DNA of 64,000 nucleotides from Candidatus Marinacidobacterales bacterium (lineage in GTDB: Bacteria; Acidobacteriota; Vicinamibacteria; Marinacidobacterales; DATDRI01): contig CBDCNP010000002.1 in assembly GCA_965219415.1 (NCBI GenBank), positions 384,001 to 448,000 of the forward strand, written 5' to 3'. Positions 1,677-8,499 of the stretch are shown in pieces (position 1 is the stretch's first letter; each line of letters opens with the position of its first letter). Both the position numbers and the translations under genes were made by a program. The notes beneath the pieces are model-generated. The model was not told the DNA's origin. It made no database searches and saw only the letters and a program-made list of their open reading frames with translations.

Positions 1677-2846
1677 ACTAGGGGTCGGTCGAGGAAGTCG
1701 CGCGCGCCACCGATGCTCGGCCCGATCCCACCGCAAGACCTGAACCAGCCGGGACCATCCCCAAGCCATGACCTGGCACAATCGACGGAGATAAAACCAG
1801 CGAGTGGCACCGCCCGGAAACACTTCGCGCAGGACGTTGTGGCGAGGAAAAGTGAACTCCCACAAGTAGCCCAGCTTTCCGAGAGCCGAGGGGATCGAGA
1901 AAACCACCAAGAGCTCTCCCGTCGCCTCCGCAGCCCGCCTAGCCACGACCGCATCCACGAACTTGCATTCCATGCGATTCAGGCGCGGCAAAGAGACCCT
2001 TACTCCGGGTGGAATCTTCACCGAGAGCAGTTGCTCCATCGCCGAGACCGCATAGGCGACGGAACGCTGGGTCCCGGTTTTCTCGGCTTCGAGCAAGAGC
2101 TCTTCCCAGTCCAGCCGCCGGGAAACCAAGACTAAATCGACCAACCAGATGAGTCGGGAGAACGAGTGCTTCTGCGCGTGCACCGCGAGATGGAGAAACT
2201 GATGAGCGGGTGGCAGAGTCAGCAAGCTTTCGTCACCGGGATCCAAGGGCACCGCCTTGGCCCAGACCGCTTCGGCATCGAACCGAAACGCGAGAACCCG
2301 TCTGCGGATTCGAGACGCGTTGATGAGGTCGGTATGGAGGTCGAACATCACCGGCCCCTTCGTGAAAAGCGTCCCCGATGAGCCCGGGGAACGGAAGCCC
2401 CGCTGAAAGAGCGTATCCCGTACTCGGGGAAGGTCTATCTCTTTCACCAGGAGATCCAGGTCGCTCAAAGGGCGTAACCCCAGCTGGCCTCCGTAAGCGG
2501 TGGTGGTCAGCGCGTCGCCTTTGAGAAGAATGATCCGAAACCCTTCCTTCTGGAGAGCAGCACGAAGCGCAAGTAGCTCTGCGAAATGGCTTCCGTTGGA
2601 GACGAAAATCTCATGGAGCGCCTTGGAGAAAGGCTCCAAGGGAAGCTTCAAACCGTCGATTCTTGTGAGCTGCTCGAGCTGAAGCGCCAGCACACCGCTC
2701 ATGCCTTCTTGCCCCGCCAGCCCGAGCAGACCCGCCCAGTCCAAGGACGGACCGATGCATTCGAGAGCCTCCTCCTTCTCGGCGTTGCCGAGGAAGAGAC
2801 GCCCCGCGGCGAGGAGCAGGTCTAGCTCTGGGCTTCTAGCAACCAC
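1662..2846 (-). CDS. Nucleotidyltransferase family protein (NTP_transf_5-like, type found in lasso/RiPP clusters)
   Basis: LLKGDAL...RPLSDLDLLV, FDLH, HLAVHAQKH and RLIWLVDL motifs; overlaps the upstream RRE gene. Confidence 0.85.
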   Translation of the reverse strand: MVARSPELDLLLAAGRLFLGNAEKEEALECIGPSLDWAGLLGLAGQEGMSGVLALQLEQLTRIDGLKLPLEPFSKALHEIFVSNGSHFAELLALRAALQKEGFRIILLKGDALTTTAYGGQLGLRPLSDLDLLVKEIDLPRVRDTLFQRGFRSPGSSGTLFTKGPVMFDLHTDLINASRIRRRVLAFRFDAEAVWAKAVPLDPGDESLLTLPPAHQFLHLAVHAQKHSFSRLIWLVDLVLVSRRLDWEELLLEAEKTGTQRSVAYAVSAMEQLLSVKIPPGVRVSLPRLNRMECKFVDAVVARRAAEATGELLVVFSIPSALGKLGYLWEFTFPRHNVLREVFPGGATRWFYLRRLCQVMAWGWSRLVQVLRWDRAEHRWRARLPRPTPSSLAL

Positions 2847-3372
2847 AATTGTTGGCAGCCTGACCCGGATTCATGCAGATGCCGTTGCAGCATCGCCACG
2901 TCGGGGTGCAGTCTCCGCCCGGGTTCGCGCACGGTGTACAGTCGGCGAGACCGGAACAGTTAGAATTCGGAATGCAGCTCTGGGCGTGTGCCGGAGTGGG
3001 TGCAACGATCGAGCTCACCACGGGTAGCATTACCGAGGCCGCGAGGCCGACTTTCTTCAACCGACGAATGAAGTCACGCCGAGAGTACGCCTCGATGAAC
3101 GCTTCGTCTTCCAGCAAGCCGACGCGCGCGAGGCGGCCCAAGGCATAGCGCACGACCTCTCGGTCGGCAGGTTCGTCGAGCTCACTCGCCAAGATGCGGG
3201 CCAACTGACTGACGGTCTTCTTGCCATCGCTCCGGCGCCATACGATCGCGGCGGCACGATTGAGACGATGCGCTCGATGGTTTCTCAAGTCATAGACCAG
3301 AACTTCGTCGAGAAGGTTCTGCACCGCTAGATCCTTTTTCCTCCGACGAGGTTTGTCGCGTCCTCTGCGCAT
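2836..3372 (-). CDS. PqqD/RRE domain fused to twin-arginine-like leader and Cys-rich peptide
   Basis: N-terminal DEVLVYDL...HRLNRAAAIVWRRSDG...LARVGLLE (PqqD fold), then SRRDFIRR, a hydrophobic segment, APTPAHA|QS and 10 Cys in the last 47 aa. Confidence 0.85.
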   Translation of the reverse strand: MRRGRDKPRRRKKDLAVQNLLDEVLVYDLRNHRAHRLNRAAAIVWRRSDGKKTVSQLARILASELDEPADREVVRYALGRLARVGLLEDEAFIEAYSRRDFIRRLKKVGLAASVMLPVVSSIVAPTPAHAQSCIPNSNCSGLADCTPCANPGGDCTPTWRCCNGICMNPGQAANNCGC

Positions 3373-3389
3373 GTTCGCTCCTTGCCAAA

Positions 3390-4226
3390 CTAGGCGGCGC
3401 TATCGAACTCGGCCAGCATTTTCTCCAGTACCTCATCCACTTCGCCTCGCGCACCGATCAAGACCGGCGCCCGACGGACGGCGCGCTTCAACATCTCGAG
3501 CGCCCGTTGAGGCGCCAGGCGGGCCGAGGCGGTGTTGGCCAACAGCGCGAGCGCCGCTTGACCGGGAGATAGCGTCTGCGGACTCCAACTTGCTCCCGGC
3601 TTGTACTCACTCACAATGACCAGCCCGACGGGTAGCGGTGGCCCCCCGGCCGTCACACCCAGTTCCTCAACCAACCCAGATATGGAAGGCCTGTCCCCCT
3701 CGAGGGTCCCAGTTGGGTGGGGAAAAGCGTGTACGCGGCCGCGTGAATCGAAGACCGCATATTCGTGGGAGTAATACGTTGCGCCCGCCCTGACCAATCC
3801 GGCGACCAGAGTGCTCTTGCCGCTGAAGGTCTTGCCCGGCAAAACGATTGCCCGGCCGTGCCATCCGACCACCCCGGCGTGGACGAACACTCGTGTCTCC
3901 GAGGTTTCGGCAACAAAGAGCCGCATGTCCGACGCGAAAACCTGAAGTAGATCGTCGAGGTCCATCGTCCTCGAGATCCGTTCCGTATTGGCATAGAGAA
4001 GGTTGTACCAGCGGACCCGCTCGGGGGAGCCTGTTGCCTGGTTGGACCCCACCCGGAGCGAATACAAACGATCCACGACGCGGGATCTCGCCGGTTTCCA
4101 ACCAGGAGAGAGCAACGGCTCGAGACGCTCGAGCACTTCCGCTTGGTTGACGCGAATCCCTACACGAGTACCGTAGACTTGATAGGCGATCCCCGCTTCC
4201 CAACCCAACCGATCGAGCTCCTTCAT
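3390..4226 (-). CDS. HPr kinase-like P-loop protein (RiPP kinase type); probable start MKELDRLGW
   Basis: FVHAGVV, Walker A GKTFSGKST, YYSHEYAV and HAFP motifs; start chosen within ORF 3390..4361. Confidence 0.8.
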   Translation of the reverse strand: MKELDRLGWEAGIAYQVYGTRVGIRVNQAEVLERLEPLLSPGWKPARSRVVDRLYSLRVGSNQATGSPERVRWYNLLYANTERISRTMDLDDLLQVFASDMRLFVAETSETRVFVHAGVVGWHGRAIVLPGKTFSGKSTLVAGLVRAGATYYSHEYAVFDSRGRVHAFPHPTGTLEGDRPSISGLVEELGVTAGGPPLPVGLVIVSEYKPGASWSPQTLSPGQAALALLANTASARLAPQRALEMLKRAVRRAPVLIGARGEVDEVLEKMLAEFDSAA

Positions 4227-4510
4227 GGATGGCGAGCCACCGTCGAGCCGTGGCAGAAGCGAACGTGCCAAGCGATTCTCTCCCTGTTCGAGTTTAGACC
4301 CCGGCGCCTCGGAGACACAGTGTTCCCAGAGAGTCCGACGAAAACCCGTTGTGATGAACACTTAAATTTATCTGTTACTTGTATCAACAGGTTACCAAAA
4401 GTACTCGACCGAGGCAAGAACCGCCCACGCGCAGATCTCGTTTGCGCTAGCGACCGCCGCTATATAGCCTGGGCCGCACGAAAAAGGCGGTTTTACAGGA
4501 GTCAGGGGCA

Positions 4511-7293: not shown

Positions 7294-8499
7294 CTACCGG
7301 CGGCGGTTCCGAGTCGGGAACTTCTGGAATTTCTGGGTAGCGGCGATTTCGTTCAAGCCCTCGCGGACGAGCGATTCGATATCCGAACTCGGCTTCAAAT
7401 CGAGCGCATCCATTAGGTGCTGGTAGGCGGCGGTCGGCTCTCGGAAGGCGTGAAGCTGCAGGAGACCGGCATAGGCGTGGGCCTCAGCCGCGCCCTTATC
7501 CGCCGGATAGTCGCGAAGATGGCGCTGGTAGATAGTGAGCGCGGCCTTGGCGTGCCCGTTCCTCGCAAGCCAATTCCCCAGCGAGATCGAATCATCCGGA
7601 TCCAAGAGACGGCGAGTCGCGTTGGACGGTAGCTCGAAGTAGAGTTTCCCTGCCTCTTCGAACCTCTGTTCTCGAATCGCGTCGGCGACCTTTTTCCGAA
7701 TGGGCGGTGCCTCCGCTGCCGGTGCCCGTCGAGCGCGAAACTCTTCCGGTCGCGAGCGGACCTCGCGAAGACCGGCGATCCATGCCACCAACACTCCCGC
7801 TAAGAAACCCCCGATGTGCGCACCATGCGCCACACCGCCACCGCCACCTCGTGAGATCAGAAAGGGGAAGATATTCTCGAGTACGAGATAGACCCCCAGC
7901 ACCAGGCGCGAACGCAATAGCATCGTTTGCATGATGAACGGAAAAAAGAAAATGAAGACCCGCACTTTGTTGTGAGGAAACCATAGGAAGTAGAAACCGA
8001 GCACTCCGGAAATGGCTCCCGATGCCCCCACCAGCGGAAGCGGTGACCGGCCGGAGAACATTCCGTAGAACAGAGTCGCCGCGACACCGGTGGCCAAGTA
8101 CCAAAAGAGATACTTGAAGGATCCCAGTCGGTGCTCCACGTTGTCTCCATAAATCCACAGGAACAGCATGTTTCCGAAGAGATGAATGAAGCCGCCGTGG
8201 AGGAACATCGCGGTGAAGAGGGTGACCAGAGAAGGGTCTATGCTTCGAAAGCCCCATGAGAAGACAACCAGGTCGTAGGCTGATATTTGTTGAATCACCT
8301 GGGACGGTGAGACGCCCGGCGGCAGGCTTTCACTCACCGCGTTCACATACTCCTGCACGCGCGGATCCTGCGGGTCGGCGGCATTGAAACTGAGTGGCAA
8401 CGAGATGAGAACGTAGACCGCGACGTTCATCGCAATGAGAGCGTAGTTTACGTACGGAACGCCTTGGGGATTAGGCTCATCTCCTAGTGGCAAGAACAT
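7294..8499 (-). CDS. Rhomboid intramembrane serine protease with C-terminal TPR-like domain
   Basis: FLHGGFIHLFGNM, GASGAISG and AHGAHIGG motifs. Confidence 0.92.
   Translation of the reverse strand: MFLPLGDEPNPQGVPYVNYALIAMNVAVYVLISLPLSFNAADPQDPRVQEYVNAVSESLPPGVSPSQVIQQISAYDLVVFSWGFRSIDPSLVTLFTAMFLHGGFIHLFGNMLFLWIYGDNVEHRLGSFKYLFWYLATGVAATLFYGMFSGRSPLPLVGASGAISGVLGFYFLWFPHNKVRVFIFFFPFIMQTMLLRSRLVLGVYLVLENIFPFLISRGGGGGVAHGAHIGGFLAGVLVAWIAGLREVRSRPEEFRARRAPAAEAPPIRKKVADAIREQRFEEAGKLYFELPSNATRRLLDPDDSISLGNWLARNGHAKAALTIYQRHLRDYPADKGAAEAHAYAGLLQLHAFREPTAAYQHLMDALDLKPSSDIESLVREGLNEIAATQKFQKFPTRNRRR

Follow-up and report, generated by a model that had tools for sequence, protein, structure and literature searches.

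A PqqD-type recognition element fused to a twin-arginine-like leader and a hypervariable cysteine-rich tail: a candidate family of RiPP-like precursors

Introduction

In the usual view of how RiPPs (peptides that are made on ribosomes and then modified post-translationally) are produced, a short precursor is bound in trans by a RiPP recognition element (RRE), and dedicated proteins cut and export the product. Chaperones of the TorD, DmsD and NapD type are cytoplasmic domains that hold a twin-arginine signal until its cargo is ready. Here, we analyze a gene (the fusion gene) in a 64,000-nucleotide stretch of the genome of a Candidatus Marinacidobacterales bacterium (Acidobacteriota; assembly GCA_965219415.1, contig CBDCNP010000002.1, positions 384,001 to 448,000), which we refer to as the window. 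Its product combines a PqqD-type RRE, a leader that resembles a twin-arginine translocation (Tat) signal, and a Cys-rich tail in a single polypeptide, whereas the Tat chaperones named above are separate proteins of other folds.

The closest described systems are the tailoring modules of phosphorylated and phosphoglycosylated lasso peptides (paeninodin, pseudomycoidin and bsf), which have the same trio of a kinase (K), an RRE (B1) and a nucleotidyltransferase (N). In the bsf cluster, the HPr-kinase homologue BsfK is reported to phosphorylate Ser3 of the lasso core, an activity strongly enhanced by the discrete RRE BsfB1, and a nucleotidyltransferase gene is part of the cluster (PMC10368454). 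The nucleotidyltransferase of pseudomycoidin is reported to add a hexose to phosphoserine (PMC8498205). The RRE of the fusion protein is closest in fold to the lasso B1 proteins, and the location of the bsf serine near the start of the core is similar to that of a conserved Ser/Thr (residue 132), at position +2 of the putative cleavage site. In contrast to the lasso systems, the RRE is here fused to the substrate, the leader is a signal-peptide look-alike, and the presumed disulfide-rich core (∼27–80 residues) has no conserved C-terminal Ser. No lasso cyclase (C), B2 protease or ABC exporter was found among the conserved neighbors in 79 genomic loci of the family, as judged from gene clusters present in at least 4 loci, only some of which were Pfam-scanned.

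Two other systems are related in part. The HPr-rel-A system described by Haft comprises a kinase A (TIGR04352) and a PqqD chaperone (TIGR04353), which are the best-scoring NCBIfam models for the kinase encoded next to the fusion gene and for the PqqD part of the fusion protein, respectively. Of 150 family members, 94 also match TIGR04353 at E≤0.1. However, both scores are far below the curated equivalog cut-offs (46.7 versus 200 bits for the kinase, with an E-value of 2.2e-12, and 18.7 versus 35 bits for the PqqD part), so that the fusion gene is a relative of this system and not a member. Bufferins are described as RiPPs that are exported by means of a general secretory (Sec) signal peptide, with no dedicated protease or exporter (PMC11626156). 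They share with the fusion protein a Cys-containing precursor that is apparently exported and trimmed by general secretion (PMC11626156), but have an N-terminal Sec signal, a separate partner protein and an MNIO enzyme (oxidative and dependent on multinuclear non-heme iron); here, a twin-arginine-type signal lies ∼95 residues into the chain, after a fused RRE, and the accompanying enzymes are a kinase and a nucleotidyltransferase. Internal twin-arginine signals have been described in actinobacterial Rieske proteins (PMC3471235, PMC5449189), and published cases are known only from polytopic membrane proteins that use both Sec and Tat; in these, the signal follows Sec-inserted membrane helices, not a soluble RRE.

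The individual parts (RRE, Tat-type signal, HprK-like kinase, NTP_transf_5 protein and Cys-rich peptide) are of known kinds. What appears new is their combination, with the RRE joined in cis to a leader that would also serve for export from an internal position, and with a hypervariable and probably disulfide-rich core behind it. Our literature search found no published account of a PqqD-Tat-Cys-rich fusion, or of kinases related to HprK that lie outside lasso clusters, and database names do not describe the combination either; since the search did not extend to subscription journals and supplements, the family may be in print.

Architecture and conservation of the fusion protein

An earlier note on this DNA, made from the sequence alone, had picked out a PqqD domain, an SRRDFIRR motif, a hydrophobic stretch, an AHA-QS cleavage-like site and a 48-residue tail with 10 Cys in one open reading frame (ORF). 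Translation and Pfam searches recover every one of these parts. SRRDFIRR spans residues 97–104, the stretch without charged residues covers residues 108–130, and AHA-QS occupies residues 128–132. Besides its 10 Cys, the 48-residue tail (residues 131–178) contains two DCTP and two NPG motifs, three Ser and three Thr. Leader and family searches of the source genome (8.05 Mb, 3 contigs) indicate that the fusion gene is single copy, and the leader search found no second match in this genome. A search of sequencing runs listed none from RNA.

The family is large. A phmmer search run exhaustively against 1.84 billion cluster representatives returned 5588 matches at E≤1e-3, including 2980 at E≤1e-10, while a word-indexed search gave 51 relatives of 100–230 residues and a profile search gave 1375 matches at E≤1e-10 among the 8000 candidates scored. 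The statistics reported here cover the nearer part of the family, namely the best 150 of the 5588 matches, 51 + 120 listed matches, and 92 genes in genomic loci. Nearly all of the best 150 are 150–220 residues long, and matches of 240–292 residues indicate that longer-tailed forms exist. Where databases give the relatives a name, it is “PqqD family protein”, “Coenzyme PQQ synthesis protein D” or “hypothetical protein”. A genome search located 168 relatives, from which the 79 loci were kept. These matches lie in metagenome-assembled genomes of Acidobacteriota (Vicinamibacteria and Blastocatellia/Pyrinomonadaceae), Gemmatimonadota, Methylomirabilota/Rokubacteria, Armatimonadota, Binatia and Nitrospinota.

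Conservation was counted by position in 290 non-redundant sequences aligned to the family hidden Markov model (HMM). The twin arginines, which the earlier note had read as part of a Tat leader, are nearly invariant (Arg98 in 289 and Arg99 in 288 sequences) and are preceded by Ser or Thr at position 97 in 266. Conservation extends along the leader, with Pro117 in 285, Val/Ile119 in 288, Ser/Thr121 in 280, Pro125 in 283, Ala128 in 225 and Ala130 in 256 sequences, and gives the consensus LPVVxSIVAPxxAxA-x-S/T-C. Mean pairwise identity was calculated from alignment A3, which consists of the first 150 of 183 proteins of 150–230 residues (P0009, P0028 and P0044 were dropped for aberrant tails). It is 0.47 for the RRE, 0.09 for the linker, 0.41, 0.44 and 0.59 for the n-, h- and c-regions of the leader, and 0.17 for the tail, in agreement with the conserved RRE and leader and variable tail that had been anticipated. 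Judged from these alignments, the conservation of the leader is far above the needs of an ordinary signal-peptide core. Since the leader is as conserved as the folded RRE, a second constraint besides signal function probably acts on this stretch.

The two conserved parts occur together. The 79 loci contain 13,786 stop-to-stop frames, of which 94 match an HMM of the leader only and 94 match an HMM of the RRE only, and the two sets are identical; the fusion is therefore obligate in the loci examined, with the caveat that these loci were found with patterns from both parts. A search for shorter homologues, aimed at split or shorter forms, produced one 77-residue candidate, which is probably a fragment. 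Two or three tandem fusion genes follow a single kinase gene in eight loci (L005, L006, L007, L022, L027, L031, L035 and L037). Paralogues from the same locus were compared in 16 pairs (11 loci), and in every pair the tail shows less similarity than the N-terminal part. In L006, the DNA of the two tandem copies matches at 100% for 420 nt from the start, and the 60-nt windows that follow have identities of 0.87, 0.55 and 0.19. The family shows the pattern of RiPP precursors, with a conserved leader, a variable core, adjoining genes for modifying enzymes and, often, several gene copies.

The leader has the layout of a Tat-type signal, consisting of SRRDFI, the uncharged segment (residues 108–130) and AHA. 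The motif SRRxhh is found in 190 and TRRxhh in 41 of 283 parsed sequences, and a crude test detected RR followed by a hydrophobic stretch in 195 of 199 retrieved relatives. The formate-dehydrogenase Tat model (formate_TAT) matches 26 of 150 family members. The RR pair lies at residues 98–99 (family median position 101), and not at the N-terminal position usual for Tat signals.

Structure of the RRE domain and its relation to the leader

The PqqD model PF05402 matches residues 23–86 of the fusion protein with an E-value of 2.8e-7 and 31.2 bits (cut-off 23.4), and it matches 150 of 150 family members at E≤0.05. An AlphaFold2 (AF2) model of the fusion protein, computed from a 150-sequence alignment, has a mean predicted local distance difference test (pLDDT) value of 86.2 and a predicted template modeling score of 0.69. 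In this model, the RRE part is a winged helix consisting of three strands (residues 15–19, 24–28 and 33–37) followed by three helices (residues 39–47, 54–65 and 71–83), with pLDDT values of 89–96. The best matches of the RRE in the Protein Data Bank, as identified by Foldseek, are the leader-bound RREs of the lasso-peptide B1 proteins TbiB1 and TfuB1 (5v1u, 5v1v and 6jx3). TM-scores on the target are 0.71–0.77 with a probability of 1.0, yet the E-values are only 7e-3 to 9e-2.

Outside the RRE, the RR n-region is modeled as a helix (residues 98–108), and the segment VSSIV (residues 119–123) of the leader as a five-residue strand with a pLDDT of ∼70. Since a DSSP strand of this length needs a partner and only the RRE strands are long enough, the partner is likely to be a strand of the RRE. 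The model thus suggests cis docking of the leader on the RRE, as in RRE-leader complexes, where the leader adds a strand beside beta-3, the partner being deduced from strand lengths rather than from coordinates. A complex prediction for the separated RRE (residues 1–95) and leader (residues 96–140), both cut from alignment A3, gave a score of 0.03 against a mark of 0.32; as a prediction with no folded controls, it speaks neither for nor against binding.

Coevolution was analyzed by mean-field direct coupling analysis (376 sequences, Meff 276) with 12 half-shuffled controls. The nine strongest pairs are all within the RRE and match its strand and helix packing. Pairs between the RRE and the leader are weak, with a maximum of 1.47, which falls within the range of the controls (0.98–1.94). 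The top 60 pairs include 27 inter-region pairs, compared to ∼45% expected by chance, and the clustering statistic is 10, compared to 6–18 in the shuffles. Averaged over the top 25 pairs, the score (1.25) is above that of all 12 shuffles (0.83–0.99), an excess that shared phylogeny can produce. An appealing pattern of leader-RRE pairs (Ser97 with Tyr76, Phe101 with Ala40 and Ala77, and Arg104 with Glu72) was set aside on these grounds.

Two positions of the RRE are frequently Cys in the relatives, position 36 in 202 of 290 and position 48 in 255 of 290. The source protein, with Arg36 and Ser48, is among the 18 of 290 that lack both.

Cysteine-rich tail

Residues near the start of the tail are conserved, with Ser or Thr at position 132 in 270 and Cys at position 133 in 222 of the 290 relatives. 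Cys accounts for 15% of the tail, compared to 1.5% of the N-terminal part. The number of Cys in the tail ranges from 4 to 16 in the family and is even in 275 of 290 relatives (6 Cys in 108, 8 in 71, 10 in 69 and 12 in 11). This parity is that of fully disulfide-bonded extracytoplasmic peptides and provides indirect support for an extracytoplasmic location of the core. The median length of the tail is 44 residues (5th–95th percentile, 27–79).

In the AF2 model, the tail is predicted with pLDDT values of 81–95 and contains a hairpin (residues 160–167) and a helix (residues 169–176). No solved structure matched the source tail by sequence, and its Pfam match to Stig1 has an E-value of only 0.036. 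A spacing of C..C..CC..C..C, as in knottins (inhibitor cystine knots), is present in 110 of 283 tails, and a few tails weakly match conotoxin or spider-toxin Pfam models, all with E≥4e-4 and none of them significant; the source tail has 10 Cys. We treat possible knottin-like tails as a lead only. Two of the longer relatives, P0146 (272 residues) and P0199 (292 residues), have an extra region of ∼130 residues after a short Cys-rich segment.

The kinase and nucleotidyltransferase genes

All-versus-all clustering of the ORFs in the 79 loci identified only three clusters that recur across phyla, the fusion gene (79 loci), an HprK-related kinase (59 loci) and an NTP_transf_5 nucleotidyltransferase (59 loci). 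They are arranged on a single strand in the order kinase, fusion, transferase, and each kinase gene is accompanied by one to three fusion genes in tandem (L007 is an example). Gene context was counted for those genes with 1.1 kb or more of upstream and 3.5 kb or more of downstream sequence (69 of 92): a kinase gene is upstream of at least 47, a transferase gene is downstream of at least 50, and both are present for at least 44. The counts are minimum values, as some adjacencies were masked by ORF calls that were too long. In the source genome, the stop codon of the kinase gene (3390–3392) lies 17 nt 5′ of the ATG of the fusion gene, which is consistent with one operon, and from its putative GTG start the transferase ORF shares 11 nt with the end of the fusion gene (2836–2846). 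The two flanking genes, which the earlier note had not used, are the strongest clue that the fusion protein is a substrate for modification.

The AF2 model of the kinase has a pLDDT of 85.8, and Foldseek matches it to ATP-dependent phosphoenolpyruvate carboxykinase (1j3b, E 1.5e-4) and to HprK/P (1kkl_B, E 7.8e-4). Kinase homologues were compared in alignment A4 (53 of 62 kinase-cluster ORFs of 250–380 residues) and transferase homologues in alignment A5 (47 of 61 cluster ORFs of 330–440 residues). Gly181 and Lys182 of the Walker A motif are invariant in 54 of 54 kinase sequences. The true start of the kinase is probably the ATG at 4226 (Met46, ∼278 residues) and not the GTG at 4361, since 45 of 54 homologues begin at Met46 and residues 1–22 have pLDDT values below 50. 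In the transferase, Asp129 and Asp131 (SDLDLL), Gly110, Arg125, His171, His223 and Asp237 are invariant in 48 of 48 aligned homologues. Sequence searches for solved structures gave nothing useful for either enzyme.

The source genome contains one other kinase paralogue, located outside the window on contig C3 (541376–542128, minus strand), which matches the family HMM with an E-value of 1e-95. It is ∼28 residues short and solitary, with no fusion or transferase gene adjoining. The same contig carries a second NTP_transf_5-like ORF (1753864–1754964) and, ∼61 kb from it, a weak stand-alone PqqD-like ORF (1815636–1815929).

Proposed mechanism

We propose that the fusion gene encodes a RiPP-like precursor with its own RRE, which would be modified by the kinase and the transferase, exported by the Tat or Sec pathway and cleaved to a disulfide-rich peptide; for this proposal as a whole, we consider the chances about even. 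In the cytoplasm, the RRE would bind the leader strand VVSSIVAP of the same chain, thereby holding the hydrophobic signal and offering the start of the core to the kinase. The kinase would phosphorylate a Ser or Thr, for which residue 132 is the best candidate, and the nucleotidyltransferase would decorate the resulting phosphate, with the K/B1/N module of phosphorylated lasso peptides as precedent. The leader would then serve as the export signal, and signal peptidase I would cut after Ala130 to release a core of ∼48 residues with five disulfides outside the cytoplasm, while the RRE and the signal would remain behind. The hypervariable tail and the tandem copies suggest that the product is an antagonistic or signaling peptide.

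The route of export is finely balanced. The invariant twin arginines and the presence of a TatC gene in the source genome (231.6 bits) favor Tat, whereas a c-region that contains no basic residue and the nature of the cargo favor Sec. We lean slightly towards Tat.

Several observations weigh against the proposal. The Tat model TIGR01409 (TAT_signal_seq) aligns to residues 97–130 at 14.2 bits, below its cut-off of 16.7, and at E≤0.1 no more than 35 of 150 family members match it (best 2e-5). A disulfide-rich cargo behind a c-region of this type would fit Sec export and periplasmic oxidation better than Tat. Docking in cis, as the model suggests it, depends on a single strand of moderate confidence. 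The tail folds confidently in the prediction without any modification, so modification may be needless. Lasso kinases mostly target a C-terminal Ser, while the fusion protein ends in Cys. Neither enzyme gene is nearby for 16 of the 69 family genes with sufficient flanking sequence, and modification, cleavage and export of family members are all predicted steps. In addition, the source kinase has His199 where 53 of 54 homologues have Asp (YYSHEY instead of YYSDEY) and Leu220 where 52 of 54 have Arg, and is possibly impaired as a result. The family residues Asp199 and Glu200 sit at what we take to be the catalytic acidic pair of HprK/P. Each of the two substitutions could be a single-base change, and the kinase paralogue on contig C3 retains the Asp, as do the kinases of the L001 and L003 cassettes. 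The cassette in the source genome may be partly decayed, or the two residues may be sequencing errors.

A fuller version of the proposal, which on present evidence we find on the unlikely side, makes the RRE a single-use cis proofreading chaperone that hides the twin-arginine signal until the start of the core carries the marks of the kinase and the nucleotidyltransferase. Tat export would then be gated by modification, and general secretion with signal peptidase would do the work of the specialized protease and transporter found in classical RiPP systems. Such a pathway would yield thousands of phospho- or nucleotidyl/glycosyl-tagged cystine-rich peptides, some of them knottin-like, in Acidobacteriota, Gemmatimonadota and other soil phyla.

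If the proposed precursor function is correct, a family of thousands with RRE, leader, export signal and core in one polypeptide would represent a new architecture, and would provide natural one-to-one RRE-leader pairs for studies of recognition. A Tat-type signal could then double as a RiPP leader, and the family would be a large untapped reservoir of hypervariable disulfide-rich peptides from poorly cultured soil phyla. A role would also be assigned to HprK-related kinases outside lasso clusters and to NTP_transf_5 proteins, both of which are widespread and uncharacterised. Current genome-mining tools that seek short precursors beside RREs would miss every member of the family.

Alternative explanations

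The family members could instead be secreted disulfide-rich mini-proteins with an unmodified core, in which the PqqD domain is no more than a cis holdase or export regulator, and the two enzymes target this domain or the leader (for example, at the conserved Ser121) as a release switch. The even number of Cys, the confident small fold predicted for the tail alone, and the high conservation of Ser/Thr121 inside the leader are all consistent with this, as is the C..C..CC..C..C spacing described above, which is typical of unmodified cystine-knot peptides. However, known RREs are reported to bind leaders and recruit modifying enzymes (PMC7470986, PMC11626156), and the nearest characterized kinase/RRE pair is reported to modify the core (PMC10368454). 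Moreover, Ser/Thr132 is conserved in the family with no obvious need for it in cleavage. We therefore regard an unmodified core as rather unlikely.

Less probable again is an uncleaved membrane protein of N-in/C-out topology, in which the RR-hydrophobic segment would act as a signal anchor and keep the RRE at the inner membrane face, where it would serve the kinase and transferase on another substrate, with the tail as a periplasmic sensing or binding module. The basic residues before the hydrophobic segment obey the positive-inside rule, the internal position of the signal is that of type II anchors, and envelope or polysaccharide genes (Wzz/tyrosine kinase, Wzy_C and TPR proteins) are near the cassette in some lineages. 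An anchor, however, has no need of the conserved Ala at −3 and −1 (residues 128 and 130) or of the helix-breaking Pro125. The hypervariable length and sequence of the tail and the tandem amplification of the gene also argue against this explanation, and no separate small leader-bearing ORF was found in the 79 loci or the source genome.

Absence of export, with the RR-hydrophobic stretch acting purely as a recognition leader for the RRE or the enzymes and the tail binding a metal or Fe-S cluster in the cytoplasm, is very unlikely. The leader is more conserved than usual signal peptides and the source protein scores below the cut-off of the Tat model, but the leader has a full n/h/c organization with AxA, and family members match both TAT_signal_seq (35 of 150) and formate_TAT (26 of 150). 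A Cys number that varies from 4 to 16 and is nearly always even also fits disulfides better than a fixed metal site.

The least credible alternative is a lipoprotein route, in which A-x-S/T-C is a lipobox and signal peptidase II cuts before Cys133 to give a lipid-anchored Cys-rich peptide: Cys133 does follow small residues in 222 of 290 relatives and a RiPP that co-opts the lipoprotein pathway has been reported (PMC13056109), but lipidation would make an even Cys number odd (where Cys133 is present, the number is even in 213 and odd in 9 of 222), only 38 of 290 fit a PROSITE-style lipobox rule, and Thr, which is atypical at −1 of a lipobox Cys, occupies this position in 85 of 290.

Features of the locus and neighboring genes

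The features of the cassette in the window are listed in Table 1.

Table 1. Coordinates of the cassette and of the parts of the fusion gene in the window
Feature	Positions	Strand	Description or evidence
Fusion gene, whole	2836..3372	-	178 residues + stop, ATG start; RRE, Tat-like leader and Cys-rich core
Shine-Dalgarno sequence AAGGAG	3378..3383	-	5 nt 5′ of the fusion-gene ATG, read from the sequence
PqqD-type RRE, residues 15–88	3109..3330	-	PF05402; AF2, three strands and three helices
Twin-arginine n-region, residues 96–108, YSRRDFIRRLKKV	3049..3087	-	Conservation; TIGR01409 alignment; AF2 helix 98–108
Hydrophobic leader and AxA site, residues 109–130, GLAASVMLPVVSSIVAPTPAHA	2983..3048	-	Conservation; AF2 strand 119–123
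Cys-rich core, residues 131–178, 48 residues, 10 Cys	2839..2982	-	Translation; S/T132-C133 at +2/+3 of the putative cleavage site
HprK-related P-loop kinase gene, longest ORF of 323 residues	3390..4361	-	TIGR04352; AF2; Foldseek
NTP_transf_5 nucleotidyltransferase gene, 394 residues	1662..2846	-	PF14907, E 6.1e-40

The neighbors of the cassette in the window are genes for an SDR, a cyclase-family protein, a beta-lactamase-family protein and a rhomboid protease; no lasso cluster genes were encountered among them. The rhomboid protease (PF01694, E 3.2e-32) has a TPR tail and is encoded at 7294–8499 on the minus strand. It keeps synteny with the cassette throughout the four Vicinamibacteria-type loci, namely the window, L003 (4–1056), L002 (3–161) and L001 (4189–5391). 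The rhomboid gene is the immediate upstream neighbor of the kinase gene, on the same strand, in L003 and L002, while in the window and L001 an SDR gene on the opposite strand (in the window, further genes too) is located between the two. The rhomboid could be a processing protease for a membrane-embedded leader, or its presence could reflect mere local synteny.

The neighbors outside the cassette are specific to lineages. Blastocatellia/Pyrinomonadaceae loci (L016, L017, L019, L020, L023, L028, L033, L039, L057, L059 and others) have a distinct set, comprising a large Peptidase_C25 protein in 17 loci (in some of them beside orphan fusion genes), a TPR protein in 20, a Wzz/tyrosine-kinase protein in 14 and a Wzy_C O-antigen-ligase-like protein in 10. 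The proteases beside the cassette, rhomboid or Peptidase_C25, therefore differ by lineage. In the Gemmatimonadota loci L005, L007, L010, L038, L058 and L064, the cassette has an rpoC-like gene (cluster c20) on one side and an EF-G gene (cluster c24) on the other. An extra gene of 383 residues, the product of which has only a weak CxxCxxCC match (E 0.0035), is present between the fusion and transferase genes in some of these loci.

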